This document shows positions 2,804 to 36,747 of a stretch of 64,000 bases of DNA, piece after piece; within the stretch, counting starts at the first letter, position 1; each line of letters begins with the position of its first letter. The position numbers and the translations under genes are program-made. This DNA comes from Escherichia phage ESCO13: the sequence record NC_047770.1; one strand, given 5' to 3'. The notes beneath the pieces are model-generated. The model was given only the letters and a program-made list of their open reading frames with translations, searched no databases and was not told the origin of the DNA.

Positions 2804-5800
2804 ATGGCAACATTCCCAACATATCCAGCAACGTCTCTCGAACAGGGCGTAGACCTGGTTATTTTCTCATCTAACCAACTCCATGATGTTATTAATGGAA
2901 GTGCTACAGAGAGTATTGAAACAGAATCAGGGTTGATACCAACCCTGAGAAAAGCCCTTGTTGACAACTTTTTCTTTAAAAGCCCATTGGATTGGGCGCA
3001 AGGCACAAACGAAACAGTTTTTAACCAACTACGTTATTTTCAGAATGGGGTATTGAGCGGTTATTATTATGCTCCTAATGCTACACTGGTAAACCCAATT
3101 CCTATGCAAGGGACTCCAGTAGGAGATAACAACTGGGTATTGTGGGGACTGAAGACAGAACAACTAGCAACAGAAGTCACCCCGTGGGTATACTCTGGTG
3201 CAACGGGTTATGAAACAGTAATTAGTCCTCCTTACATCTTTGATAGTGCTATTGTTACGATCAATGGTGTTATTCAGGTTCTGGGGGAAGCTTTCCGTAT
3301 AGAAGATAGTAAGATCATCTTATCTGAACCTTTGGGACACGATCCTGCAACAGGACTACCAAACAAGCTTTTTGCTTATATTGGTAAAATCGTAGCTTCA
3401 GCAGATACAGATCCTAATCTAGAGAACCGTCTTGTTAGTTTAGAAACAAAAACGGAAGAACTAACAGAAAGCATGGATAAAGTCCCTCTGCAAACTATTG
3501 CTCGTAAATATGGTTTGTTAGATGACGAGGTGGCTTACGCAACAGCAGGTCAATCGTTAACAGGGATTAAAGCTCTGTATGATCCAGTAGCACAGTCTTC
3601 CTACACATTACCTCCTAACATCACAGGAACTTTAACATCCTTGTCTGTTTCTGGAGTAATGACTTATTCTGGGGGGTCTGTAGATCTTTCTGCACTAGCT
3701 GTTGAACGTGGACAGTTTGTTCATTTGCCTACAAGCTTTGGTAATAACGTAACTCTGACAGCTAAAAATCAGACGATTGGACGTGGTGCTGGTCGTTATC
3801 GTTGGGCTGGAAGTTTACCAAAAAGTATTTTGGCCTCCGATACATTGGAGACAAGCGGTGGATTAGGTCCAAATGCATGGGTTCTGACCAATACAGAAGG
3901 ACTGTTAACCCCTCGTGGTGGAACATACAACGATTTATTCGATGTTGTCTACTTGTCAGAATTTGCTAACAACACAACAACATATACCACACCAGAAGCA
4001 GCTTTCCAAGCGGCACTGTTAGCAGCAAAAGCTTCGAAAAGCAAGATTCTCGATGCTTACGGTTGCGATATGACTTTCACGACAAGCTCTTTTGATATTC
4101 AAGGTATCACTTTGCGTGGGGGTGTGTTCCGTGGTCAACGCGACTATCGTGTGCAAAATGCTACAGTAGAAGGCACAACTTTCCGTAACTCTCGTGTTAT
4201 GTATTGGGGTGGTGCTGTGCGCATGTTCGATTGTTTGTGGGACGGTGCTCCTCGCGCAGGTCAAGTTGGTAGCTTGGTATTCCAAGGCAACCCAATATCA
4301 GGTACTTTTGAAATTGATAACTGTACTTTTAAAAACGGGTTGTATGGCATCCTTCAACAAGGAACAGGGGAACCAGTAACACATGGTGTCTTCCGTAACC
4401 TTACCTTCATGGACATGCAAGGTGATGCAATAGAACTGAACGTCATCAATAAACATTATGACGATGGTTGTGTGATTGAGAATATTTACCTGTCTAATAT
4501 CGATGGGACTAACGCTCCTATTCCTCTGTCCAACTGGGGTATCGGTATCGGTGTAGCTGGTAAAGGACCATATGGTTACGGAATACCTGATGATCAATAT
4601 TGCAAGAATATTACAATTCGTAACGTTTTTGCAAAACGTTGTCGTCAGATTGTCCACGTAGAAGTTGGTCGTAATATCTCTATCGAAAACATTCATGGCG
4701 ATCCAGACCAAACTGTATCTGTTGGGACAGGTTTGGCAACTGGCGCAGTTGTAATGTATGGAAGTAAAGACTTTACGATTGATGGTGTTTATGGAGAGCC
4801 TAAAACAGACGGTAGCACACTTGCAAGTAATATCCGTATGATTTATTTGGAGTGGGGAACTAACGCAGTTCTGGACGAAGAGGGTAATCCGGTAGTTCCG
4901 GCACAGGGTAGACCTTCAAATCCATGCTTTAACTATTCTGTTCGTAACATTCACACCAAAACTGGGCGTGTTTTTGCGGGAGTTTCCGCTGGGCCAGGTT
5001 ATGAAAACAGAGTTAGCTTTGAAAATATTCGTTGCGCCGCATTGCAGTTGTTCGGTATAGCTTCTTGGCTTTCAATGTCTAACATCACCTGTAATATCTT
5101 CGATTGTGTTGGTCAACCTGAATCTGGTCCAGGGACATTTTATGATGGATTCTTCCGTAGAGAAAAATCTGTTCTTGAAATGGTTAACGTAAACTGTTAC
5201 CCAGATGGCAAGACGATGGTTACTGGTCGTCCACAGTGGAGCCGTTGCCGTTACTCGGATATTCATCGTGTCAACTGTAATGTTGAAGCTAATATGTATA
5301 CCAATATCGCAGGTGGTATTGGAGCTATTGTAGGGACAACGGGCAAAGTTTATTACTTAGAGCCTAATCCTAGTCGAAACATTGATGGAATGCATTTCCC
5401 AACGGGGAAAGAGTTTGACAAAGGGGATATGATAGTCAAGGCGGATAATACGTTCTTCCTTGTAACAACAAGTGGGGCATATATTCCAGATATCCCAGCT
5501 TTCGGTATTCGAGCTACACAGGCAGGAGATACCTTCCTGACACAGAACTTGACTCCTAACGGGACAGCAACAAATGCTTCTTGGTTGTATCATTACCCTC
5601 TGTCAGCAGGGACACGTATCCGTATTCCTGGTGCTGGTGTAGGTGGAGCAGATTTGGACACAGTTATTACTCGTGCACCTTATCAAGATAATGATACGTG
5701 GACTAACCCAGTTAAAATAGACATTGCAGATCCAATTGTAACGCCTACAAGTGCTGGAGTTAGAATTAAAACCATACCTAATGATTCCAGTAATGTTTCT

Positions 5801-5920: not shown

Positions 5921-7945
5921 ATGAATTTAACAAGACCTAATAGTGCGATAGCCGATCTGGTAGAAGCTACTTATCGAAAACGTCGCAGCTTTGAGGCAGG
6001 TTTTACATTACGTAATTCCCGTGAAGTTTTGCTGTTAGCAGCAGAAGGGAATTATTACCAATGGAAAGGAACTTTTCCTAAAGTAGTTCCAGCAAACTCT
6101 ACGCCAGCCACCACAGGTGGTATTTCTTCCCTTGCATGGCAAAATGTTGGGACCGCTGATGATATAGCAATTATCAATGCCAAGTTTACGGCAGTGCAAC
6201 AACAGATTAATGATTTGTCAGAAGCAATACCTGAAGCTGGTAAATCGGCTTATCAGATCGCACTTGATAATGGTTTTGTTGGAACAGAAGCCCAGTGGCT
6301 TGCTTCTTTGAAAGGAGATACTGGTGCTCAACTTAATATTAAGGGATCATTAGCAAGCACTAGTGAACTACCATCTACAGGTAACATCGCAGGAGATGGT
6401 TATATCGTAGGTGATGTGATTTACGCTTGGGATGGTTCTGTTTGGAAACTTATTTCTTCTCTTGGACCAGAAGGGAAATCAGCTTATGAGGTATGGTTGG
6501 CAGATGGTAATACAGGATCTGTTTATGACTTTCTTACCTCTATAAAAGGTGATAAAGGTGATGTTGGTCCTACAGGGCCACAGGGAGCACCTGGTGTTAA
6601 CGCCAACGGTTTTGATTATCGTGGGGATTTACCTTCTACAAGTAACTTACCACAACCTAACTCTGAAAACGTAAGCCAAGCTTATTCTATCAATGGTAAT
6701 CTTTATGTCTCTAATGGGACAGCTTGGGTCAACATGGGTAATATTGTTGGTCCTCAAGGTCCACAAGGTGAGGCAGGTAAAGACGGTCTTGATGGAACAG
6801 ATGGAGATGAAGGGAAATCTGCATATCAAAGTTGGCTGGATGCTGGTAATGAAGGGACAGAAGTAGATTTTATTGCCTCACTTAAAGGTCCAAAAGGAGA
6901 CAAGGGTGATCAAGGAGAGCGAGGTCCACAAGGTGAACTAGGTCCACAAGGACCAGTGGGTGCAACAGGATCAGGCTTAGAGATTATCGGGGTTCTGAAC
7001 AGTGAAGCTGAACTTCCTCCTACTGGAGAAGTAGGTGACGCATATAAAATTAATAATGATTTATATGTTTGGGTCCAAGATGCTACGGAATGGATGAATG
7101 TTGGCAGTCTTGGAGGAACATCAATTACAGCTAAAGGTCATGTTCCGAACAGTGAAGCTCTCCCTGTTTACAATAACTATGGTGATGCTTACTTAACTGA
7201 AGACACTAGTAATCTTTACATCTATACCTACGATCAAGACACCAATTCCGCATCTTTTGTTGACATGGGAAGTATTAAAGGCGACAAAGGTGAAAAAGGG
7301 GATAAAGGAGATAAGGGTGATCCTGGAACAAACGGAACCAACGGTACTGATGGGACCAACGGTAAGGATGGCGCACAGTGGTTTGTAGCAACAACTAATC
7401 CAGTCACAGGAGACGGTGTTATCAATGATTACGCCTTCAATACTACCACTGGAGCAGTGTTTAAGAAAACAGATTCTTCTACGTGGACGCTTATAGGCAC
7501 TCTTCCTAGTATACCAGAAGCCCCTCAAGACGGCTTGACGTATGGTCGGTCTGATGGAAACTGGATCGAAATATCAGGATCAGATCCTACGGAAGCTATA
7601 ACACCAACTAGAGTTACAGCAGGTTTCATGGAACTTGAAACAACTACTGCCAACTCTGGAGCATCTTGGACTCCTTCTGGAACTTCCAATATGTATGTTG
7701 TTACAGTAACTGATGCTCTGACAGTTGGAGCATGGCCTGGTGTCACTGGCTCTACAAAACCTAAAGCATTTTCAGCAATGATTTATTTGATTCAAGATAC
7801 AACGGGACACACGGTTACACTAGATGCGTCTTATGGAGCACTAAATGATACAGAAATAGCAACTACTGCTAACGCAGTAACAATTTTGCAATTAACGTAT
7901 CCTGGTGTGGGTGATATCGTGGACATGGTTGTTGTAACACGATAA
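5921..7945 (+). CDS. tail fibre protein with collagen-like Gly-X-Y repeats
   Basis: 674 aa; four Gly-X-Y runs, e.g. GDKGDVGPTGPQGAPG, GPKGDKGDQGERGPQGELGPQGPVGATG, GDKGEKGDKGDKGDPGTNGTNGTDGTNGKDG. Confidence 0.7.
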   Translation: MNLTRPNSAIADLVEATYRKRRSFEAGFTLRNSREVLLLAAEGNYYQWKGTFPKVVPANSTPATTGGISSLAWQNVGTADDIAIINAKFTAVQQQINDLSEAIPEAGKSAYQIALDNGFVGTEAQWLASLKGDTGAQLNIKGSLASTSELPSTGNIAGDGYIVGDVIYAWDGSVWKLISSLGPEGKSAYEVWLADGNTGSVYDFLTSIKGDKGDVGPTGPQGAPGVNANGFDYRGDLPSTSNLPQPNSENVSQAYSINGNLYVSNGTAWVNMGNIVGPQGPQGEAGKDGLDGTDGDEGKSAYQSWLDAGNEGTEVDFIASLKGPKGDKGDQGERGPQGELGPQGPVGATGSGLEIIGVLNSEAELPPTGEVGDAYKINNDLYVWVQDATEWMNVGSLGGTSITAKGHVPNSEALPVYNNYGDAYLTEDTSNLYIYTYDQDTNSASFVDMGSIKGDKGEKGDKGDKGDPGTNGTNGTDGTNGKDGAQWFVATTNPVTGDGVINDYAFNTTTGAVFKKTDSSTWTLIGTLPSIPEAPQDGLTYGRSDGNWIEISGSDPTEAITPTRVTAGFMELETTTANSGASWTPSGTSNMYVVTVTDALTVGAWPGVTGSTKPKAFSAMIYLIQDTTGHTVTLDASYGALNDTEIATTANAVTILQLTYPGVGDIVDMVVVTR

Positions 7946-7986: not shown

Positions 7987-10662
7987 ATGTTTCCAATTCC
8001 AATATTTACTATTATGACCAGCACTGGTGTCGTTCCTCTGCCAGCAGGTATTGTTAAAAAAGTAATCACTTTAGATTACCCAGATAACGCTGGTAATTCT
8101 AACAGCAGTTTAGCAATTTTGCTTAATGATGGTAGATTGTTTACTCAAGGCGCAAACCTCTTTGGTGAGATTGCAGATGGAACTCGTAGTGCACGATTCA
8201 ATAATTTCCACTTAGCTTCTACTGTAGTAGCGGATGTGTTTACCGCAGATCGTTGTTTTGTTATTAAAACTAACAGTGGGGGATGGCAATATTCAGGATT
8301 GACAGCAGGGTTGGTAGGATCTATAGCAGCAGGTGGTACGGATGCATGTGTAACTACCTGGACCAGCTTTCCATCTGTAATAACAGGGACTATTTCTTTA
8401 GCCAATCTTAAAGAGGTTAAAGGAGGGTATAACAATACTCTCTGGTTAATGAATAGTGGTGTTCTTTATGGATCGGGTCAAAACACAGTAGGTAGTTTAG
8501 GTGCAAGCACTACTAACGAAGTTTCTACTCCTCGTCAGATAACAAGCGCAGCAGTTGCTTTTGATGCAGGTTACAACCAATGCTCTTATGTCAACAATGT
8601 GGGAACCTTGCGTGTTTGTGGAGCTAGTAAAGGTTTAGCAGGTAATAATAACACAACAACAGCTTTTGTCAATGCCACAATATCCACTACTGAAACAGTG
8701 TATGTCAAAGATTACATCAATACAGTTTCCCAGACAATAGTTGTAGGAGATACCTCCGGTGGCACGGGTACAGTAAACTACTTATATGTTAGATCTAATA
8801 CAGAAACAACCTACACTAAACTGGATACCTTTGCAGCAGGTTTCTCAACATGGAAGTTTCCACCAAGCCGCCACTCTTTTTTCGTTGGGATCAATAATTC
8901 CTTGTGGGCTATTGGTAAGAACTACACTGCAAACTTAGGTTTGGGGTATGATTCTGCGAGCGGAGATCCACTCCAAGTGGGAAAACCAGTTAAACCTGAA
9001 GGAGTGGGTTCTTGGGATATAAACAAGCTCACAAGCGTTCATACGCTGAATATGGATGTTACTAACCAATTAGGTTATCAAGGAACCTTTTTCGTTTATA
9101 ATGGAGATATGTATTATTCCGGTATTTGGAAAGATGGGAAAGCCTCGTATCTGTTCAATAGTGGTCTAAACTATAATAAATTCACACCAATAGCAAGCTC
9201 CGTGATTACGGGCGATATTCTGGCAACAGGCTTAACTACAGATTCTTTAGGAATTTGTATTGTAGGTGGAACTAAACAGTTGACACATTCTGTTAGCCCA
9301 GAAGGAGGCAAACTTTTCAATATTAAATACACTTCTTCTGCCCCTGCAAACATGACAATATCATCTACTGGTTTAATGACTTTCCATGCAGAAGGTGGTT
9401 TTGATGCAGGTATGACAGCCTTAAACGCTGAAGGAACAACTTTATCAGATACCTCTGGAGGATATGCTTCAACATTGAGTGTTTACACCCCTAGCTTATC
9501 TGCGATGGATGTAGGAACAACACAAACAATGGTAGCAGAAATAACGCCAACAGGAGCAGCAAGCTTACCTGGTATGGTTGTTGAGTATTTCTCTAATGAC
9601 CCTACGGTAGCAACAGTTGACCCCGTTACAGGCGTTATTACAGCGGTTGCTGATGGAGGTTGTCGTATCGGTTGTAGAGCAACTTATCAAGGTGTGGTAA
9701 CTGCCGAAGATAGTTCTTATCTCACAGTGAATGCTGTGGTGATTGTGATGGATTATGATTTGACGCAAGAAACTATTCCGGCGGATGTAAAGGTCAACAG
9801 GAGTAACCGTTATGCCAGGGCTTCTGGAGATATCCTTGTACCTACAGAGAGTTCTGCTCCCGTAGCACCTTTAGAATATGTTGGTACAACTCCACAAGGT
9901 AGACGTGTTGTAGCAGCCAACCGTACACATATCTTTATCAACAATAACTTGACAACAGCTTCCCCGTGGTTGAAGACGAACTTGACAGTCACGGCATCAA
10001 CAATCAACTCTCCGGTTGGAACTACAGCTAACACTTACAAGTTAACACCTTCTACAACTTCAGGACAACATATTTTATCAGCAGTGAATACAGCTTCTGA
10101 TATTACAGCAGGTAAGCACTGGGCGGCATCCGTATTCTTGAAGCCAGACGGGATCACTAAAGTGAAACTCAAATTGACTTCAGGAGATGAGATTAACGAA
10201 GGGACTTATGATCTTGTAGCTGGAACATTTACAGGTGCAGATGCAAACATAATCGATATGGGGAATGGTTGGTATCGTGTAATTCTACACAAAGTGACAG
10301 TTGCCAAACAAGCATCTATAACCTATGAGATTATAGCTTTGAATGCAAGTGGATCAGACACTTTCGCAGGAGATGGTACGGCAGGTCTTATTGCTTGGGT
10401 TCCACAGCTTGAGATGGGTGATATGACAAATCCAGTTTGGGCTGGGACACCATTTGTTTGTTCTTATGCACGAGACACTACCAGTGCTGTTACCTTCACT
10501 ATTCCTAAGAATGGACATACTGGCGTGGACATTTACCACACTGATGGTACTGTGCAACGAGAGGTCTTCACTGGTACAGCTACAACTTGGATGTTGACGT
10601 TCACCGCCGCAAGTGCGGATTGGGGATCGAAGTTCATTACAGGTTTGAAATATTACGACTAA
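7987..10662 (+). CDS. tail fibre protein with Ig-like (Big_2-type) domain
   Basis: 891 aa; Ig-like segment VGTTQTMVAEITPTGAASLPGMVVEYFSNDPTVATVDPVTGVITAVADGG; last gene of the plus-strand late block. Confidence 0.65.
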   Translation: MFPIPIFTIMTSTGVVPLPAGIVKKVITLDYPDNAGNSNSSLAILLNDGRLFTQGANLFGEIADGTRSARFNNFHLASTVVADVFTADRCFVIKTNSGGWQYSGLTAGLVGSIAAGGTDACVTTWTSFPSVITGTISLANLKEVKGGYNNTLWLMNSGVLYGSGQNTVGSLGASTTNEVSTPRQITSAAVAFDAGYNQCSYVNNVGTLRVCGASKGLAGNNNTTTAFVNATISTTETVYVKDYINTVSQTIVVGDTSGGTGTVNYLYVRSNTETTYTKLDTFAAGFSTWKFPPSRHSFFVGINNSLWAIGKNYTANLGLGYDSASGDPLQVGKPVKPEGVGSWDINKLTSVHTLNMDVTNQLGYQGTFFVYNGDMYYSGIWKDGKASYLFNSGLNYNKFTPIASSVITGDILATGLTTDSLGICIVGGTKQLTHSVSPEGGKLFNIKYTSSAPANMTISSTGLMTFHAEGGFDAGMTALNAEGTTLSDTSGGYASTLSVYTPSLSAMDVGTTQTMVAEITPTGAASLPGMVVEYFSNDPTVATVDPVTGVITAVADGGCRIGCRATYQGVVTAEDSSYLTVNAVVIVMDYDLTQETIPADVKVNRSNRYARASGDILVPTESSAPVAPLEYVGTTPQGRRVVAANRTHIFINNNLTTASPWLKTNLTVTASTINSPVGTTANTYKLTPSTTSGQHILSAVNTASDITAGKHWAASVFLKPDGITKVKLKLTSGDEINEGTYDLVAGTFTGADANIIDMGNGWYRVILHKVTVAKQASITYEIIALNASGSDTFAGDGTAGLIAWVPQLEMGDMTNPVWAGTPFVCSYARDTTSAVTFTIPKNGHTGVDIYHTDGTVQREVFTGTATTWMLTFTAASADWGSKFITGLKYYD

Positions 10663-10663
10663 T

Positions 10664-10698
10664 AAAAAAGGGAACCCGCAAAGGTTCCCTTTTCTTTT
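10664..10698. terminator. bidirectional rho-independent terminator between convergent late and early blocks
   Basis: AAAAAA-GGGAACC-CGCAAA-GGTTCCC-TTTTCTTTT; A-run upstream and T-run downstream of a 7-bp stem. Confidence 0.6.
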
Positions 10699-10725
10699 AT
10701 AAAAACTCTTTATAAATCAATAAGA

Positions 10726-11613
10726 TCAGAACGGAATATCATCATCGAAGTCCATTGGAGGTTCTTCTTGATTGCTTGGAGTTGGTTCTGGTTGTGGTTC
10801 AGGTTTCTTAACTTCTTTCTTCTCTTCTTTCTTAGGTTGTTCTGCGGAACCACGAATGGCAGCAGCAACTTTATCAGACAGAGCTAGAACTTTACGAGCA
10901 GAGTCAATCAGATCTTCTACAGATACAGTCTTAATGGTATGGTCTTTACAAGCATTGAGAATAGCGTGACCAACAGATGCCCCAAGATCATAATCATTAA
11001 TATCAACGCCACGAGATTCAGCAATTTCCGATTTCAGCGTGACAGTTGCAGATTGAACAACCCCAGCGATATCGAAAGCATCACCTTTAACACCATTACG
11101 AATCAGTTCCAGTGCACCATTTACTGCGTGACCAGTTTCCAGACCTACAGTATCACGTTTTTTATAGGACTGCTTAGGAGCAGCATCGTTGGAACCTTTA
11201 TTGCCAGAAGATTTGTTAGACTTCTGAACACCATCGGTAGACAATACTGTAATACGAGATTTTTTAGTATTGTAGTAAGTTTTACCGCCTTTATTATCAA
11301 CGCGATCAATATCAATACTTACTTCTACACCTTTTTCAATAGTGATCCAATTATCACCTTCTTTGACTTGCAGGTTTTCATAACCTTCTTTCAGTTCAAT
11401 GTCACCAAGAGAAATCCAAACACCTTTCTCATCTGGTTTAGCACCTTTCTCTTTCAGAACAAGAGAGGCTCGGTGAGTTGAAACAATCGTTTTTCCTTCC
11501 CAATGAAAAGTTTTAGGTTCAGCGAATTTATCCAGTTTAACGTAGTCTACGATACCAGTTGCATAAGTTACGGTTTTGCCTTTACGATCAGTTTCAGTAT
11601 TAATTACGGACAT
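10726..11613 (-). CDS. ssb: single-stranded DNA-binding protein
   Basis: 295 aa; C-terminal acidic tail PPMDFDDDIPF is the same as the E. coli SSB C-terminal tail (from memory); Gly/Lys-rich linker. Confidence 0.8.
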   Translation of the reverse strand: MSVINTETDRKGKTVTYATGIVDYVKLDKFAEPKTFHWEGKTIVSTHRASLVLKEKGAKPDEKGVWISLGDIELKEGYENLQVKEGDNWITIEKGVEVSIDIDRVDNKGGKTYYNTKKSRITVLSTDGVQKSNKSSGNKGSNDAAPKQSYKKRDTVGLETGHAVNGALELIRNGVKGDAFDIAGVVQSATVTLKSEIAESRGVDINDYDLGASVGHAILNACKDHTIKTVSVEDLIDSARKVLALSDKVAAAIRGSAEQPKKEEKKEVKKPEPQPEPTPSNQEEPPMDFDDDIPF

Positions 11614-11629
11614 TATTATCTCCTCTACA

Positions 11630-12022
11630 TTACATTAATTTTGCACAGAAAGAGCGGAGTCTTTCCATATCATCTTGCTCTAACAGGTATTTACCTTTAC
11701 CTATTCCAACTCCAATTTCACCATTAGGAAAATGAACTATTTGCACTGGGAAACCTCCGAGTTTAATTGTGGCAGCTTTGCCTTCTTCGTCTATAACGTT
11801 TCGGATTGTATCTTGCAGTGAAATGAATTCTTTGTTTGTAACAGTGGTTTCAATTATTTCAGATGTTTCGACACGAGCAGTTAGCTTCTTGTTTCCACCT
11901 TGAATAACCAAAATTTGAAAATAAAAAGAGTTGTCAAGACCTACAACATTTTTCTCAACTAGTGTCAAACTGGTGTAGTTTCCATAAACAGTTTCAACAG
12001 CTATCTTAGAACGTTCAGTCAT
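11630..12022 (-). CDS. hypothetical protein
   Basis: 130-aa ORF in the packed early operon. Confidence 0.5.
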   Translation of the reverse strand: MTERSKIAVETVYGNYTSLTLVEKNVVGLDNSFYFQILVIQGGNKKLTARVETSEIIETTVTNKEFISLQDTIRNVIDEEGKAATIKLGGFPVQIVHFPNGEIGVGIGKGKYLLEQDDMERLRSFCAKLM

Positions 12023-12067
12023 TGAATGCTATCCTATCATAAAATGTTTAATATTGTCAAGCTTTAA

Positions 12068-12661
12068 TTACCAAGGAATATCATCTTCTTCCAATCTGGT
12101 ATCTACTTGAGGTGGACGTGGAACCTTAACCTCTTTCACAAAACGAAGATATGGGAAACGTGTAGCAATTTTAATAACGTGTTTGGCATCTTCTCTAACA
12201 TCTTTGTGCAAGAAGCAGATCCCTGTTTCCAAAGTTGTTTCAAAATCTTTAGAGTAATAACAATCCTTCCCATCAAATGCAGCCTGGCAGATGGACAGAT
12301 CAAACTCATTTAGAAAGGTTGTCATTACGCTTGGTTCCATAATCATAAGGTTGCAAAGCTGACCATCACGTTCAAACTCAAAAACGTGTTTAAGACCAGT
12401 AACACCCTCGTAGTTATCCGAAGCTTCTTTGTTTCCTAATTTACGAACATTAGTTCCCATCAAAGCAGATGCAATCAATTCTTGTATTTGCTCTTCTGAT
12501 CGATGTGCAGGAAGAGACGTGTAAAAATCCAGATCACGTCCAGCAATATCAAGAATACGCCAATCACGAACAGCGCCGCCAGCCAAGACAGAATTAGGAT
12601 CAGCAATCTTTAATACGGTAAGAATTTCTTTGGCAATATTGATTTGTTTTGATTTAGTCAT
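12068..12661 (-). CDS. Pol-beta superfamily nucleotidyltransferase (CCA-adding-enzyme head-like)
   Basis: 197 aa; LAGGAVRDWRILDIAGRDLDFY carries the GGAVRD ... DxD nucleotidyltransferase motif; C-terminus EEDDIPW resembles the SSB tail. Confidence 0.6.
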   Translation of the reverse strand: MTKSKQINIAKEILTVLKIADPNSVLAGGAVRDWRILDIAGRDLDFYTSLPAHRSEEQIQELIASALMGTNVRKLGNKEASDNYEGVTGLKHVFEFERDGQLCNLMIMEPSVMTTFLNEFDLSICQAAFDGKDCYYSKDFETTLETGICFLHKDVREDAKHVIKIATRFPYLRFVKEVKVPRPPQVDTRLEEDDIPW

Positions 12662-12872
12662 GGATACGCTCCACAGTTACTTTTACAACATCGTCCATAT
12701 TAATCTCATCCCCCAAGACCTCAATAACACCTTCCTCATAAAGTCGAGCACATTCTTCCCACACTTCAGCTTCCGTCATTCCGCCTGCAATCTTATTTGC
12801 AAGACCTTTAATAACATCTTCATTTTGTTCATCAACAAGAATTGAAACATTAAAGCTCACTAATTTACGCAT
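12654..12872 (-). CDS. hypothetical protein
   Basis: 72-aa ORF; RBS AAGGAG upstream. Confidence 0.5.
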   Translation of the reverse strand: MRKLVSFNVSILVDEQNEDVIKGLANKIAGGMTEAEVWEECARLYEEGVIEVLGDEINMDDVVKVTVERIHD

Positions 12873-12882
12873 TGTTTTCTCC

Positions 12883-13050
12883 TTATACTTCTAAACGGAA
12901 AGTTTCTTTAGATACAAAATCGTATCCACCTTTTTCAAGCCAGTCATTGTAAACCTCATCGGCTTGAGACTCTATCATAAAATACCGAGTGATAACTTCG
13001 TCTCCGACAATACGCACAATTTTATAGCAAATCATGATACCATTTCCCAT
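12883..13050 (-). CDS. small hypothetical protein (below the ORF-track length cutoff)
   Basis: 55-aa ORF MGNGIMICYK...; start overlaps the upstream stop (TAATG) and its stop lies just before the RBS of the next gene. Confidence 0.35.
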   Translation of the reverse strand: MGNGIMICYKIVRIVGDEVITRYFMIESQADEVYNDWLEKGGYDFVSKETFRLEV

Positions 13051-13241
13051 TAATCTTCCTCCAGATCAATTTCATTATAACAATGTATGCAGAAACCATC
13101 ATTGTGCATATGTTGTTCATAGGACATATCTTTACCACAAGACCAACAACGGATATCCCCATCGTCCCATTCACGTTCTTCTTCACCTTCAAATTCATCT
13201 GGTAGGTAAGGCATACCAAGACAATCTAAATCGTAATGCAT
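13050..13241 (-). CDS. small Cys-rich (zinc-binding) protein
   Basis: 63 aa with CWSC ... CIHC pairs. Confidence 0.5.
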   Translation of the reverse strand: MHYDLDCLGMPYLPDEFEGEEEREWDDGDIRCWSCGKDMSYEQHMHNDGFCIHCYNEIDLEED

Positions 13242-13289
13242 ATCTCCTCCTATAAAGGGGCAGAAGCCCCTTATAAAACAATGAGTTAA

Positions 13290-15887
13290 CTAGTGACAGG
13301 ACGCCCAGGAGTTACCCACATCATATCCGGCAGTAAGCTGAACATTAAGATTGTAAAATTCTCCAGCCTTAGTAACAGCTAAAGCAGCAAGTTCACCTGC
13401 CCGACTATAGGCTGTAAACCATCCACCTTTGGGAGATTCATGAATGTTAGCCCAAATTTGCCCTGTCTCTTTTTCCTTATTATGCTTCCATTCTTCAACT
13501 TTAGCAAGGCATTCTTTATCAATTTTCTTTTGTTCTTCAGGATCGTCTACTTTCTTCCAACCTAATGATTCAGGTGAAAACCATTTGAATTCTACAAGGT
13601 TACGAGAAACTTCAAGCTGGGCTTCATCGTGATATGCAATCATTTGTTGCACGAAGTCTTTATTCTTCCAGTCATCTTTAAAGAAGTCAACACTTAGCCC
13701 TTCTTCTTCGATCATGTCGTCATAAATAACCATTGCACGTTTAGCACAGATAACCCCACCACTTTGGAACAGAGAGTTAAGAATCGCGTGAGCAGAACGA
13801 GTAGGAACCTTACGACCGTCAATACCCAAAACATACTGTTTACCAGTCTTAACCCAGAAATCGTTTAAACGTTCTTTAAGACGCGCCAGTGGGAATGCAG
13901 CTTCCCAGAAAGCATCGAACACCAGTTGCCCTGTGTATTTATCGCTACCAATTGTTTTAGCAACCTTGTCTGCTTGTGCACCATAAGTGATCCCGTATTT
14001 AACAGATTTCGCCGGACTACGTTCAAACTTACGCCCAATAGTATCTGTAATACGTTTTGCCATCATGGTATGAACATCGTTAGGCTTCTCTAACAAGAGA
14101 GCGTTACAGTATTCATGAGGCTCCGGTTCGTAGCGCCAACAATAATGCGACTCAATCTTTGCTTCCAAAGAGTCGAAGTCATAACCGATCTGGAAGTATT
14201 TAGGAACTTCTACACCAAACAAGTTACGCATCTCCCATCCAAACAAAGATGTGACACGAGGGATATTGGCTACAGACCTATGCTTCATACGAGAGGTTGC
14301 AGCATCACATGTAGCGGCTGGTGTAGGAATACGCCCATCCGCCCTTACTGCGGCTAAGAAACCTTTATCGTATTCTTGATCTTCTTCATCTTCTTCCCAA
14401 TCAGCACCGCCACCTAAAATAGAGTTCCTACGATGCTTATACGTTAAGTATTCTACAATCTGAGTAGCATAAGGAAATTTCTCACCCAAAGCTTGCAGGT
14501 TAGGACAGATTTCTTTTTCCTGACCTTTGGTAAAACATGGGTTAGTCAATACTTTAAGACCGCGACCTTTACCTTTTGCTATACGCTCTTGAATCTTCCT
14601 TTCCAAGGTTTCCGGTGTGCACTCCAGATGATCACAACGATCCTGACAAAAATTAGAAGATAGAGTTTGCTCAACGTAAGCTCGAATACCTTTCTGAAGT
14701 TCTTCCTCGCTCTTTTTAATCTTGGTGCCAGATTTAAGAGTCAAGTCTTTATCTTTATATTCAGACGGTACCCAACCTAATCCTACAAGCCAGTTTTTAA
14801 TATGGGTTGTATCGTTCAATGTTGCAGGGATGTTAGGATCACATAGAGGTTCATCTGCTGCAACTGGCAGTTTCCACTCTTTCCCCAACATAACTAACCA
14901 CCAATCGCCATCCCTCTCTTCCAAATGACCATCATGCTTCTTAGCAAAATTGATCATATGGTTAGTTGGCTCTAAGTTCTTTTTAATTTGCAACTTAGGT
15001 GGAATAAAAGCCTTAAGATAGCCTTTTGTTGCTGGTTTAGGTGGCAAAATAGGCTCAACGAGTAAACGAAGACGCTCCATTTCTGCATCCAAAAAAGCAA
15101 GGTTCTCTTCTGCTTGCTTCATGTTAAAAGCAAACCCACGGTGTTCCTGGCGTGTGATAATGTCTGCTACACGTTGTTCAAGTTCAAATGGACCTTCCCA
15201 TTTATCATAATCACCCCATTCTTCCATAAGGTAGTTATATACGCTCGTATTGGCTTTGTTGTCATAGATACAGTAATAAAGCATATCCGCAGCAAAAGTC
15301 TTAAATCGATCTTCTTCTGGAATCTCTTTACGGAAATCTATTTTTACATCACCACCTGCTTTTCGAGAAAGTGCTGCCAAGCTATGTCCTGATTTGCCCT
15401 CAATCTTTCGATCTGGGTTTAACACTTTACTCAAAATCAAGGAGTCAATAAGTTTTACCTTATTTTTGCCCCACGTATTATATTTAACACTGTAATCTAA
15501 TCCATAAAACAGTTTTGTAGCCAACCAGTCGTAGTTGATACCGTTGTGAGCCACAGCCATTTCAACCAGATATTCAGGCTTGTCTTTAAAATAACCTTCA
15601 TGATTAATAAAGTCTGGGAAATCTTTTAGTTGAAAATGCGTGTAATCTTGCGCCACATACTCTTTAAGAACATATGTGTATTTACCATCTGACTCTTCAT
15701 AAGGACGCCCATCAAAGATGTATTTAGGGCCATCGTGGAAAGCTACTATTTCTCCTGTTTCATGGTTCTCTAAGACAATACAGTGCATTTGAAATGTGTC
15801 TTTGAGACGATAAGGACTAGCTAAATAATCAATAGTGTCATTATTCAACAATCCGTTTGCTTCAATATCCCATGTAAACTTACTCAC
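13290..15887 (-). CDS. DNA polymerase, family A, with 3-prime to 5-prime exonuclease domain
   Basis: 865 aa; Exo I WDIEANGL; motif B RSPAKSVKYGITYG (R..AK..YG); motif C HDEAQLEV. Confidence 0.9.
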   Translation of the reverse strand: MSKFTWDIEANGLLNNDTIDYLASPYRLKDTFQMHCIVLENHETGEIVAFHDGPKYIFDGRPYEESDGKYTYVLKEYVAQDYTHFQLKDFPDFINHEGYFKDKPEYLVEMAVAHNGINYDWLATKLFYGLDYSVKYNTWGKNKVKLIDSLILSKVLNPDRKIEGKSGHSLAALSRKAGGDVKIDFRKEIPEEDRFKTFAADMLYYCIYDNKANTSVYNYLMEEWGDYDKWEGPFELEQRVADIITRQEHRGFAFNMKQAEENLAFLDAEMERLRLLVEPILPPKPATKGYLKAFIPPKLQIKKNLEPTNHMINFAKKHDGHLEERDGDWWLVMLGKEWKLPVAADEPLCDPNIPATLNDTTHIKNWLVGLGWVPSEYKDKDLTLKSGTKIKKSEEELQKGIRAYVEQTLSSNFCQDRCDHLECTPETLERKIQERIAKGKGRGLKVLTNPCFTKGQEKEICPNLQALGEKFPYATQIVEYLTYKHRRNSILGGGADWEEDEEDQEYDKGFLAAVRADGRIPTPAATCDAATSRMKHRSVANIPRVTSLFGWEMRNLFGVEVPKYFQIGYDFDSLEAKIESHYCWRYEPEPHEYCNALLLEKPNDVHTMMAKRITDTIGRKFERSPAKSVKYGITYGAQADKVAKTIGSDKYTGQLVFDAFWEAAFPLARLKERLNDFWVKTGKQYVLGIDGRKVPTRSAHAILNSLFQSGGVICAKRAMVIYDDMIEEEGLSVDFFKDDWKNKDFVQQMIAYHDEAQLEVSRNLVEFKWFSPESLGWKKVDDPEEQKKIDKECLAKVEEWKHNKEKETGQIWANIHESPKGGWFTAYSRAGELAALAVTKAGEFYNLNVQLTAGYDVGNSWASCH

Positions 15888-16681
15888 TATTCCTCCTTTC
15901 TAATGTTCTCCAGAACCCACTGAAGTTCTTTTAAACTTAAACTTCTTACTCCCGCAGTTTTACTAGCTTCAGCTTTAAGTAACGGGTAAGCCTCAATGAT
16001 ACGCGTTTTAAGATCAGAAGTCAAGGCTTTTAAAAAATAGGTAGATGCTTCAGATAAAGAATCTTCTTCTGATAACACTTTACCTGCACTTGCTCCCGCT
16101 CTCCTAACGGCTATATCGTAGTCTTTACTGTTACCTAATACGAATAGTCGATTCTCTCCTAAAACAACGGGAGAACGCTTCTCGTTGCGTTTAATCCATA
16201 TCTGGAATACACAAGGAACATCCCAAGGTTCTCCATGAAGAATAAAAGATCCTTTTGGACATTCTTCTTCGTAAAGAAGATGCATGTGGGGATTTAGTTT
16301 GTGTGCAAAAAAGATTTTTTGAAATGTGCGAGGCAAGATAAAACAAATACCACCTTCGTTATCCAACATTTCAGCACAATGGTTAAAGAACTTAATGGCA
16401 AGACTAGCATTTTTTCCAAACGGAGGATTACCGACAAAAGCAGTTACACTACCAACAGACTCTACAGATTGAGCTAAAAAATCTGCCTCAATACAATCTT
16501 CAAACTTAGGATCAATATCAAAAGAAGTTATGTTTTTAAAACAAGAAGAGAAAGCTCCTTCTCCCGCAGATGGTTCTACGTAGTTAGCTTCCTCTCCAAA
16601 AATTTCTTTGATCTTATCACATAAGAACCCCGCATAAGCGGGGTTAGTGTAATATTGATCAAGTGTGTTCAACTTGCTCAA
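15887..16681 (-). CDS. DNA N6-adenine/N4-cytosine methyltransferase (amino-methyltransferase class)
   Basis: 264 aa; SAM motif VEPSAGEGAF followed by catalytic FVGNPPF (NPPF). Confidence 0.75.
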   Translation of the reverse strand: MSKLNTLDQYYTNPAYAGFLCDKIKEIFGEEANYVEPSAGEGAFSSCFKNITSFDIDPKFEDCIEADFLAQSVESVGSVTAFVGNPPFGKNASLAIKFFNHCAEMLDNEGGICFILPRTFQKIFFAHKLNPHMHLLYEEECPKGSFILHGEPWDVPCVFQIWIKRNEKRSPVVLGENRLFVLGNSKDYDIAVRRAGASAGKVLSEEDSLSEASTYFLKALTSDLKTRIIEAYPLLKAEASKTAGVRSLSLKELQWVLENIRKEE

Positions 16682-34260: not shown

Positions 34261-34452
34261 TTAAAATGGAAGTCTTTGAAGTTCATCTCCTCCGATATCA
34301 AGTAATTTAGCAACATCTCGATCAGAAAGCAACTCTTTTCTTTGTAAAATATCCACAAGGGTTGCAAGAATGTCCTTAACGTCCCGATCACTGTTCTTCA
34401 AAAGTTCTCCTGCCGTCCCTACCCTATCTCCTACAGCAAAATATGTAACCAT
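34261..34452 (-). CDS. hypothetical protein
   Basis: Start moved to MVTYFAVGDR (ATG at 34452, RBS GGAGG, 14 nt after the nrdG stop). Confidence 0.45.
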   Translation of the reverse strand: MVTYFAVGDRVGTAGELLKNSDRDVKDILATLVDILQRKELLSDRDVAKLLDIGGDELQRLPF

Positions 34453-34465
34453 AAAACCTCCTACG

Positions 34466-34936
34466 CTAATCTGATTGCCAACCACTCGCCGTTTTGGTCC
34501 ATAATCTTTGATTATCTGACCCTCTGAAAGGTTTTGTGGTTGGATTGTTTATTTCATACTTTCCGTCTACAATAATGTCAACAAGATTTTTAATATACAA
34601 AGGCACTTCCTCAAAAGTATATCCTGTATACACCATTATATCTTTGCTTGACCCATAAACGTCTCTAACCTTTTCTATAAGGTTTTTAACATTGTAAATA
34701 TTCTGCGGATCTAATGGTTCTCCTCCTAAAATTGTTAAACCTTTTACAAACGGTCTTGACAAATCTTTTAAAACTTGCTCTACATTTTCGTTAGTGAACG
34801 GTTTCCCATAAGAATAAGACCAGGCTTTCTGGTTAAAACAGCCACGACAACCGTGGCTACAACCACTAACCCAGAGGGAGCACCTAACTCCCTCACCATT
34901 AATAAGATCTACAGGTTCATATCCTGCAAAATTCAA
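34466..34936 (-). CDS. nrdG: anaerobic ribonucleotide reductase activating protein (radical SAM)
   Basis: 156 aa; CxxxCxxC cluster GCSHGCRGC; ATGA overlap with nrdD. Confidence 0.85.
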   Translation of the reverse strand: MNFAGYEPVDLINGEGVRCSLWVSGCSHGCRGCFNQKAWSYSYGKPFTNENVEQVLKDLSRPFVKGLTILGGEPLDPQNIYNVKNLIEKVRDVYGSSKDIMVYTGYTFEEVPLYIKNLVDIIVDGKYEINNPTTKPFRGSDNQRLWTKTASGWQSD

Positions 34937-36747
34937 AGATGTTTCTCCCTTTGCAAAACTTCCTGCATTTTACCTTTGTTATAAGGCCGTGAATTAGGGG
35001 CAGAAAGATACCCTGATACACGTCTAACTACAGAAATAGTTTCTTCTTCATGGTTGCCACAATTAGGACACTCAAACCCTTTAGCCGTTGCCTTAAATTC
35101 TCCATGAAAACCACACTTAAAGCATTGATCCACGGGCTGATTAATACCAAAATAGTGAATATGTTCATAAGCGTAGTCTACTAAAGTCTCCAAAGCTTCT
35201 AAGTTATTCTTTAAGTTTGGTGTTTCGACATAACTTATGTTACCACCATTGCTAATCTGTGCAAAACCTGCTTCATAATCCCATTTTTCAAAAGGATTTG
35301 TTACCAACCATACAGGTTGATGAAAAGAATTAGTAAGATAGTCTCTTTCTACCAGACCTGGATATTTTTCATTTAAAGCTGTTGCAAATTTATAGCACAA
35401 GGATTCTGCTGGAGTTCCATAAAGACTAAATGCCAACTTAGATCGTTCTTTAAACACAGCACACACATCTTTCATATGTTGCAGAATGTTTTTACCTAGT
35501 TCCTTTTTATCTTTTTCCTCTGGATAAAGGATTTCCAAAGCTTCGGCAAGACCTACATAACCAATACTAATAGAAGCATAACCACCTTCAAACAAAGCAC
35601 CAATTTCATCGTTGGCATTTAAACGCGCTAAAGCCCCTTCCATGAAAAGAATAGGGTTTTCAGATGCTTTGGTATGTCTGATACGGTTTACACGTAGCAT
35701 GTGAGCATCGTAGGCTATCTCCATATGTTTATTAAGAAGATCGGTGAAAGATTCTCCTTTACTTCTCGCTTCCGCAGCAATCAGAGGCAAGTTGATAGAA
35801 ACTACTCCAAGGTTGAATCGTCCATCATATTTTTCTCCTTGTTCGGTGGCATAGTACGACAAAAAGGAACGACAACCCATACTCGTAACGGTACCATCTG
35901 CTGATCCCGTAACTTCTTTGTTCAAAGGAACAGAAATAAAATCTGGATAAATACGATCAGCACAACATGCCAAAGCTTGTTGCTTAAGGTCGTAGTTAGG
36001 ATCACTAGGTTTCATGTTAACACCTTCTTGTAAAAAGAAAATAACTTTAGGGAATACAGGCGTTACATGATCTTTACCTAGACCGTTACTATGCACTTTA
36101 AGATAGTTAGCTGTGATCATTCTGCCAAAAACAGAGGTATCCAGACCCATACTGATTGTAATAAAAGGAGATTGTCCATTAACACTCATTAAAGTGTTAA
36201 CCTGATACAAAAGAGTTTGCATAGCGTCATATACATCTTGTTCGGTCATTTCTAGGGCTTCTTTCCTTGCATAACAACCGTAGCGACGTTTGGTTATCTC
36301 CATGTTTTTAAGGAAACTGGCTTCAACATAAGGACTAAGACCTTTATCAATGTGCGCACACGTCTGACCTCCATACTGACTGGAGGCAACAGCTTGGATG
36401 ATTTGAGTTAGCACTGTAGTAGCTACTCCAATAGATTTTGGTTTTTCTATCTGTGCAGCACCGATCTTAAAACCATTCTCTAACATATCTTGATAATTAA
36501 CAAGACAACAGTTTGTAAGAGGAGAGAGCAGATAATCCAAGTCGTGAATATGTCCAAAACCTTCTGTATGCCATTCTGACAAGTTTTTTGGCAGTATCTG
36601 TGTCATTGCCATATGTTTGCTTAAAATCCCCGCCAAGAGATCCCTGTGCGTGTTAACAAGGTGGGAAGGTTTGTTTGCATTCTCTCTAGTGTATGTTTCT
36701 GAAGTGCGATCTAAAAAAGAAAAAACATCTTGGTACAAATCTTTCAT
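34933..36747 (-). CDS. nrdD: anaerobic ribonucleoside-triphosphate reductase (class III)
   Basis: 604 aa; C-terminal zinc ribbon CFKCG...CPNCG and glycyl-radical-type motif RRVSGYLSAPNSRPYNKGK. Confidence 0.85.
   Translation of the reverse strand: MKDLYQDVFSFLDRTSETYTRENANKPSHLVNTHRDLLAGILSKHMAMTQILPKNLSEWHTEGFGHIHDLDYLLSPLTNCCLVNYQDMLENGFKIGAAQIEKPKSIGVATTVLTQIIQAVASSQYGGQTCAHIDKGLSPYVEASFLKNMEITKRRYGCYARKEALEMTEQDVYDAMQTLLYQVNTLMSVNGQSPFITISMGLDTSVFGRMITANYLKVHSNGLGKDHVTPVFPKVIFFLQEGVNMKPSDPNYDLKQQALACCADRIYPDFISVPLNKEVTGSADGTVTSMGCRSFLSYYATEQGEKYDGRFNLGVVSINLPLIAAEARSKGESFTDLLNKHMEIAYDAHMLRVNRIRHTKASENPILFMEGALARLNANDEIGALFEGGYASISIGYVGLAEALEILYPEEKDKKELGKNILQHMKDVCAVFKERSKLAFSLYGTPAESLCYKFATALNEKYPGLVERDYLTNSFHQPVWLVTNPFEKWDYEAGFAQISNGGNISYVETPNLKNNLEALETLVDYAYEHIHYFGINQPVDQCFKCGFHGEFKATAKGFECPNCGNHEEETISVVRRVSGYLSAPNSRPYNKGKMQEVLQREKHL

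Follow-up and report, generated by a model that had tools for sequence, protein, structure and literature searches.

The stretch analysed here (the window) comprises 64,000 nucleotides of Escherichia phage ESCO13 (NC_047770.1). The subject of this report is a minus-strand gene at positions 12068-12661 that encodes a stand-alone nucleotidyltransferase of 197 residues, the C-terminal tail of which resembles that of SSB (the protein that binds single-stranded DNA). The window's best matches over positions 10000-16000 are phAPEC8-type phages (Phapecoctavirus, Stephanstirmvirinae), with which it shares 97.7-99.6% identity. The gene is already labelled in GenBank as a 'putative tRNA nucleotidyl transferase / poly(A) polymerase' or a 'nucleotidyltransferase', and matches PHROG 10174 (E 3e-63). 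It lies in a minus-strand block with the order primase-helicase, methyltransferase, family A DNA polymerase, three small open reading frames (ORFs), transferase, 130-residue protein, SSB-like protein and hairpin. A preliminary description of the locus, which gave no strand, had reported the motif GGAVRD...DLD and the terminus EEDDIPW in one 197-residue ORF, and the translation confirms this. The ORF starts with ATG, LAGGAVRDW occupies residues 26-34, DLD occupies residues 43-45 and the chain ends ...TRLEEDDIPW.

The active-site motifs of the transferase are intact. The family was collected with HMMER (281 representative clusters at the 50% identity level, E values up to 1e-3), and the motif AGGAxRDW...DxD is invariant across it. 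The catalytic core motif GGAVRDW...DLD (G28-D45; window 12527-12580, minus strand) contains the GG turn and two metal-binding aspartates. In an alignment of 111 homologues, residues G28, G29, A30, R32, D33, W34, D43, D45 and Y84 are invariant; F140 and K164 are family-specific invariant residues in addition to W34 and Y84. The invariant GG, RD and DxD are consistent with an active transferase. An AlphaFold model built from a 13-sequence alignment was poor, with a predicted local distance difference test (pLDDT) score of 62.9, and a rerun with 111 sequences gave a pLDDT of 87.8. On this model, together with the profile comparisons described below, the protein is predicted to be Gad2-like with the head and neck fold of a CCA-adding enzyme.

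The last 20 residues (178-197; window 12071-12130, minus strand) are predicted to be a disordered linker and tail; the last two ten-residue blocks have mean pLDDT values of 63 and 52 and contain no secondary structure. The chain terminates in the peptide EEDDIPW-COOH (residues 191-197; window 12071-12091, minus strand), in which acidic residues are followed by Ile-Pro (EEDDIP, residues 191-196, compared with DDDIP in E. coli SSB). The terminal residue is Trp197, where the DDDIPF tip of E. coli SSB ends in Phe; Trp is found in all close homologues and some distant members end in IPF. The tip is kept in all ten homologues of 59-99% identity (DDIPW in nine and DSFPW in one), whereas the 10-15 residues of linker preceding it vary in both length and sequence. 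A variable disordered linker with a fixed tip is the architecture of an SSB tail. The acidic tail noted in the preliminary description thus proves to be a conserved, disordered terminal peptide, the tip of which is maintained down to 59% identity. Among the 620 stop-to-stop ORFs of at least 40 residues in the window, only the transferase and the SSB-like protein end in an aromatic residue with at least three acidic and no basic residues in the last eight. A scan of the rest of LR597654, a 99.6%-identical genome, found no further acidic Ile-Pro-aromatic tail. The transferase tail is one of only two of its kind in the phage proteome, and the second, found 450 bp away, reproduces the tail of host SSB exactly.

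Two further observations concern tail sequences. The codons GAT ATT CCT TGG (window 12071-12082) are nucleotide-identical in loci L003, L002 and L005 despite far more diverged proteins (61% identity to the query protein in L003, 35% in L002 and more distant still in L005), which could reflect codon bias or transfer of a tail-coding segment. Elsewhere in the window, a 74-residue ORF at 34261-34485 (minus strand) ends in ...GGDELQRLPF, a weaker Leu-Pro-Phe terminus; it lies directly downstream of anaerobic ribonucleotide reductase genes (nrdD-like, 34933-36747; nrdG-like, 34466-34936).

Similar tips recur across the transferase family. Outside the clade of the query, the pattern [ILVM]P[FWY] terminates seven of 248 family representatives, compared with three of 2372 background ORFs (binomial P ~4e-8), and IPF-type ends are enriched about 20-fold over the ORF background. 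The seven are P0018 (NFPDDIPW), P0095 (SSNDIPW), P0122 (PDDGIPF), P0128 (NDTIPF), P0132 (EPYIPF), P0149 (EKPIPF) and P0052 (ESIPY), and further members carry acidic Phe-terminated tails such as FSDDDF, WDEEF and WETPF. SSB-like tips (IPW, IPF, DDDF) are present in at least eight scattered lineages and, because the nearest relatives are mostly tail-less, these are counted as at least eight independent lineages. The transferase of the metagenomic contig L009 has the tail FSDDDF, which resembles the FDDDYDF tail of the 5'-3' exonuclease of the same phage (transferase and exonuclease genes at L009:3300-4397 and 10001-10990). In L005 the transferase ends in NDIPW and the 5'-3' exonuclease ends in DDFDDF (L005:413-1486 and 6691-7608). 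Both of these transferase homologues are extended at the N-terminus, and the acidic Phe-ended tails of the exonucleases are long. The small transferase of phiAS7, the one Autographiviridae member examined, has no gp2.5-like acidic tail. Judged from its conservation and recurrence, the tail of the transferase is very probably a real, selected feature of the SSB-tip type, and the recurrence supports its candidacy as a functional docking peptide.

The second tailed protein of the block has 295 residues and is encoded two genes downstream of the transferase on the same strand (10726-11613, minus strand). Its gene is syntenic with that of the transferase throughout Stephanstirmvirinae. It is labelled SSB in some GenBank records and belongs to PHROG 4477, a group of unknown function. 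The protein ends in ...EEPPMDFDDDIPF, and BLASTP against MG1655 SSB identifies EPPMDFDDDIPF (10729-10764, minus strand) as an exact copy of the host protein's C-terminal tail. The last 12 residues are identical to those of E. coli K-12 SSB (MG1655 ssb), and 30 of the last 33 nucleotides of the ORF are identical to the 3' end of ssb. This tail, which is conserved across the subfamily, may be a capture from the host. The preliminary description had taken this protein to be an SSB with a host-type tail. The tail is as claimed, but the likeness to SSB is confined to it. Pfam gave nothing relevant for the body of the protein, PHROG SSB and NCBIfam matches were restricted to residues 247-295, and removal of the tail left PHROG 4477 as the sole match. 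A search of the PDB matched only the tail, and hhalign found no similarity to T7 gp2.5. The label may therefore be a weak one, owed to the tail, although the position and the tail of the protein fit a putative SSB. The idea that a tail on the transferase tracks the tail on the SSB-like protein was rejected: phi92 and KP13-26 carry DFDDDIPF on the SSB-like protein and have a tail-less transferase. In the phi92 orthologue, gp156 (L013:4026-4973), DFDDDIPF is followed by 17 extra residues, APIGLQYGRNFLHCF, so that the motif is not at the free C-terminus; this extension might stem from a sequencing or frame problem, or canonical tail function might really have been lost.

Of the characterized proteins, Gad2 is the closest relative of the transferase by profile comparison. 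Bacillus phage SPbetaL7 encodes Gad2 as its second anti-defence protein against Gabija, a predicted nucleotidyltransferase of 400 residues that is toxic on expression (bioRxiv 10.1101/2023.05.01.538930; Gad2 sequences were taken from the supplementary table). A February 2026 review still gives its mechanism as not elucidated (PMC12904381). Comparison of the transferase family with a three-sequence Gad2 alignment (two Gad2 sequences, one of them experimentally verified, and a Pfam-Gad2-positive metagenomic paralogue) using hhalign gave a probability of 96.6% (E 6.8e-10) over 124 columns, and comparison with the experimentally verified Brevibacillus Gad2 homologue alone gave 92.5% over 112 columns. 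The corresponding comparison of the 111-sequence family alignment with E. coli Cca gave only 11% over 23 columns, limited to motif A, which places the family nearer to Gad2 than to the host CCA-adding enzyme. Precomputed annotation assigns Pfam PF26128 (Gad2) to about half of the family. The match is described as 'faint' for P0009 (61% identical) and P0018 and as 'weak' for P0095 and P0124; the nearly identical P0001 has no recorded match.

The transferase and Gad2 (PF26128; SPbetaL7 and the Brevibacillus prophage homologue) are both phage-encoded, share a homologous nucleotidyltransferase core and have relatives that are toxic on over-expression. The transferase is nevertheless not a Gad2 orthologue, since it does not have the extra C-terminal domain of ~250 residues found in the ~400-residue Gad2 (the alignment stops at about Gad2 residue 141), its family has GGAxRDW where Gad2 has GGxITSLF, the Pfam match of its 61%-identical relative is 'faint' and Gad2 is without an SSB-like tail. 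No sequence match or close structural match was found to minimal nucleotidyltransferase toxins of the MenT or AbiEii type or to other defence transferases, and the PADLOC defence-system library gave no match. Elsewhere in the family, the 84-kb phage contig L016 encodes two paralogous transferases, a 254-residue protein (3636-4400) with a clear Pfam Gad2 match and the 204-residue P0161 (6001-6615). These flank a Dam-type methyltransferase, with an acetyltransferase nearby, and the region looks like an accessory or counter-defence island.

The preliminary description had called the protein CCA-enzyme-like, and this holds only for the fold and for motif A. The motif A pattern of GGxVRD followed by DxD is present (LAGGAVRDW...DLD, residues 26-45) and aligns to CCA-adding enzymes, and the stretch G28-D45 is the sole part that does so by sequence. 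In the search against solved structures, matches to CCA-adding enzymes (1miv, 3h37 and 3aql) were limited to the N-terminal helix, the GGAxRD turn and DxD; matches to Cas12f and haemoglobin in the same search were regarded as chance hits. The structural matches span under a third to a half of targets of 350-450 residues (target-normalized template-modelling score 0.27-0.31). The Pfam PolyA_pol profile (PF01743) matches below threshold, at 15.5 bits against a gathering cut-off of 23 and over profile positions 3-51 of 126 only, and similar sub-threshold matches were found in ten of 13 relatives. Of motifs B to E, neither the RRD ribose sensor nor EDxxR, which holds the nucleotide-selecting residues, is conserved in the family consensus; residues 157-161 of the query are EDAKH, but E157 and D158 vary within the family. 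As the preliminary description had also stated, the tRNA-binding body is missing: the protein is about half the length of CCA-adding enzymes of 350-450 residues and ends at residue 197, without the body and tail domains by which the tRNA elbow is bound. Stand-alone CCA-head proteins of ~170-210 residues are known, including Streptococcus pneumoniae NP_344798.1 (PDB entry 2la3), Klebsiella phage fHe-Kpn01 gp22 and the Autographiviridae 'tRNA nucleotidyltransferases'. They share the size and head-type fold of the query but match it by structure only, at 13-20% identity, and the sole one checked for an acidic tail, that of phiAS7, has none.

These comparisons bear on the function given in GenBank, under which the protein would be a minimal tRNA 3'-end (CCA) repair or CCA-adding enzyme with an acidic tail unrelated to SSB-type docking. 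The best structural matches are indeed CCA-, CC- and A-adding enzymes, motif A matches, the phage has tRNA genes, the RNA ligase RtcB is encoded two genes downstream of the family member in L009, and OLD-family nucleases, which are relatives of GajA, have been reported to cut tRNAs (PMC12904381). However, all ten tRNA genes of LR597654 (63478-65493; L008:13579-15594) encode the 3'-terminal CCA. De novo CCA addition is therefore not needed, and the possibility that the phage tRNAs require it was rejected. E. coli K-12 also has its own Cca. Together with the host enzyme and the absence of both the body domain and motifs B to E, the encoded CCA makes the annotated tRNA function less likely, although the protein might still repair tRNA 3' ends. 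The sub-threshold Pfam score for the head domain points the same way, and a tRNA role would leave the conserved, recurrent SSB-like tail unexplained. We regard it as an unlikely account of the protein.

The genomic context of the transferase is that of DNA replication. The family A DNA polymerase lies upstream (13290-15887, minus strand). Directly upstream is a 72-residue ORF (PHROG 25475; 12654-12872, minus strand), the 3' end of which overlaps the start of the transferase by eight nucleotides, making translational coupling possible. Throughout Stephanstirmvirinae, the transferase and SSB-like genes are always separated by the gene for a conserved 130-residue protein of unknown function (PHROG 16560; 11630-12022, minus strand), which is a candidate partner of either gene product. 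Downstream, between the convergent tail-protein and SSB-like genes, a palindromic hairpin with flanking A and T runs (10666-10693, no strand assigned; a consensus match only) is likely to be a bidirectional terminator that closes the replication block. A scan for promoters and terminators found no more sites than expected from shuffled sequence, and this terminal hairpin alone was noteworthy. The same gene order is found in the divergent loci L002 and L003 and in KP13-26 and phi92. Family members adjoin a primase-helicase in L004 and directly follow DNA ligase in L005 and L009, and the structural relative in phiAS7 is located between ligase and DNA polymerase. Phage stand-alone head-domain proteins likewise occur near DNA polymerase, helicase or ligase genes; in Pectobacterium T7-like phages, the gene list of a genome-map legend places the transferase between the helicase and DNA-polymerase genes (PMC7693777).

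There are precedents for such a tail. An acidic stretch capped by a terminal Phe closes both gp2.5 (...EDGDF) and the gp4 helicase (...NDTDF) of T7. Both proteins dock on T7 DNA polymerase. The gp4 helicase is thus a replisome protein other than an SSB that carries a tail like that of the T7 SSB. The SSB tip and the T7 tails share with the query a flexible acidic peptide at the terminus, and the SSB tip also shares the Ile-Pro-aromatic sequence at the free C-terminus; the query differs from SSB in ending in Trp and in carrying the tip on an enzyme rather than a DNA-binding protein. Many genome-maintenance proteins dock on SSB tips (PMC5872125), and the SSB tail of phage HK620 recruits the phage protein Sak4 (PMC5928155).

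The reading that we favour, to which we assign a probability of roughly 0.4, is that the tail docks the transferase at the replisome or on SSB-coated DNA, where the enzyme would act on nucleic-acid ends, possibly as a counter-defence. A stand-alone Pol-beta type nucleotidyltransferase with intact catalytic motifs would be made within the replication gene block, with its last 20 residues serving as a flexible linker followed by EEDDIPW-COOH, which would imitate the SSB tip in its acidic residues, Ile-Pro and aromatic residue with a free carboxylate. As a docking peptide, the tail would substitute for the missing tRNA-binding (substrate-binding) body. We infer that it would bring the small catalytic module to a protein that reads SSB tails, either part of the phage replisome or a host protein that interacts with SSB on SSB-coated single-stranded DNA (ssDNA), and that the docked enzyme might then add nucleotides to the 3'-OH end of DNA or RNA. 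The purpose could be to shield the ends of phage DNA, or its replication intermediates, from host defence or to disguise them, in the manner presumed for Gad2. Such a counter-defence role is plausible because of the relationship to Gad2 and because several defences sense DNA ends or phage SSB.

A number of observations weigh against tail-docked action. The tip ends in Trp rather than Phe in every DDIPW lineage, so that the pocket may differ from the known SSB-tail pockets. The preliminary description had proposed recruitment to the same pockets that bind the SSB tail; the independent recurrence of the tips supports a docking peptide, but because of the Trp tip those very pockets may not be the ones used. 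An SSB-like tail is found in only ~9% of the representatives (23 of 258, including the ten-member clade of the query). In phi92 and KP13-26 the gene order is kept and the transferase is without such a tail; since these sister genera are tail-less in the same setting, the tail would be an add-on outside the core function. Many tail-less members are located among small accessory ORFs and DNA methylases instead of in replication modules, a context that is typical of counter-defence genes. E95, the likely third catalytic carboxylate, is invariant in the close clade, but only 68% of the members of the wider family have an acidic residue there. Finally, Gad2 itself has a different C-terminal domain, no SSB-like tail and no RDW motif.

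The tail might instead act in cis, folding back on the basic nucleic-acid-binding groove of its own protein, as the tails of SSB, T7 gp2.5 and T4 gp32 do, and gating activity or mimicking nucleic acid with no partner involved. It is acidic, flexible and terminal, as this would require, and the E. coli SSB tail has been reported to bind its own DNA-binding site weakly (discussed in PMC5928155). A brake could also be useful, given that related small phage transferases are toxic on over-expression (PMC7291057; Emajogi gp22). However, charge mimicry would not need a precise Ile-Pro-aromatic tip, which is the part that is conserved and recurrent, and the AlphaFold model contains no confident docking of the tail on the body. 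We consider a cis-acting tail improbable. A decoy, in which the tail would vie with host SSB for partners such as exonuclease I, RecQ and RecJ and catalysis would be secondary, seems more improbable again. The tail resembles the host tip, and the exact copy of the host tail on another phage protein can be taken as the phage exploiting the SSB interaction network, but the catalytic residues are invariant family-wide, which suggests that catalysis matters, and a monomer with a single Trp-ended tail would presumably be a weak competitor against tetrameric SSB. That the resemblance is a functionless coincidence is very improbable: the motif is short and is absent from most family members and from the sister genera, but the tip is conserved behind a diverged linker, its enrichment over the ORF background is strong and it occurs independently in several lineages.

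Docking of the transferase through its tail admits a broader extension, namely that the SSB-like tail is the route by which Gad2-family transferases reach their site of action. A minimal nucleotidyltransferase would be delivered to SSB-tail binders, or to SSB-coated phage ssDNA and DNA ends, where nucleotidylation of DNA 3' ends or of the partner protein would blind defences that sense DNA ends or phage SSB, such as Gabija, Hachiman, Nhi and retron Eco8. We hold this extension to be doubtful; if true, it would define a new class of tail-targeted enzymatic anti-defence and would explain the mechanism of Gad2.

The gene has an existing annotation, and the phage family in which it falls is known but uncharacterized. 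Literature searches for an SSB-tail-bearing phage nucleotidyltransferase found none, and neither the conserved, recurrent SSB-like tail nor the specific connection with Gad2 appears to have been described. Small CCA-head-like nucleotidyltransferases are widespread in phages, with structural relatives in Autographiviridae and giant viruses; some of the small phage enzymes are toxic to bacteria, and Gad2, the one characterized relative, defeats Gabija. In the operon described here, host-SSB-like tips are found on two different proteins without detectable SSB homology. The repeatedly acquired SSB-type peptide provides a first sequence-level clue to where such transferases may act, be it the replisome, SSB-coated DNA or the SSB interaction network, and gives a cheap experimental handle on how Gad2-like transferases work.

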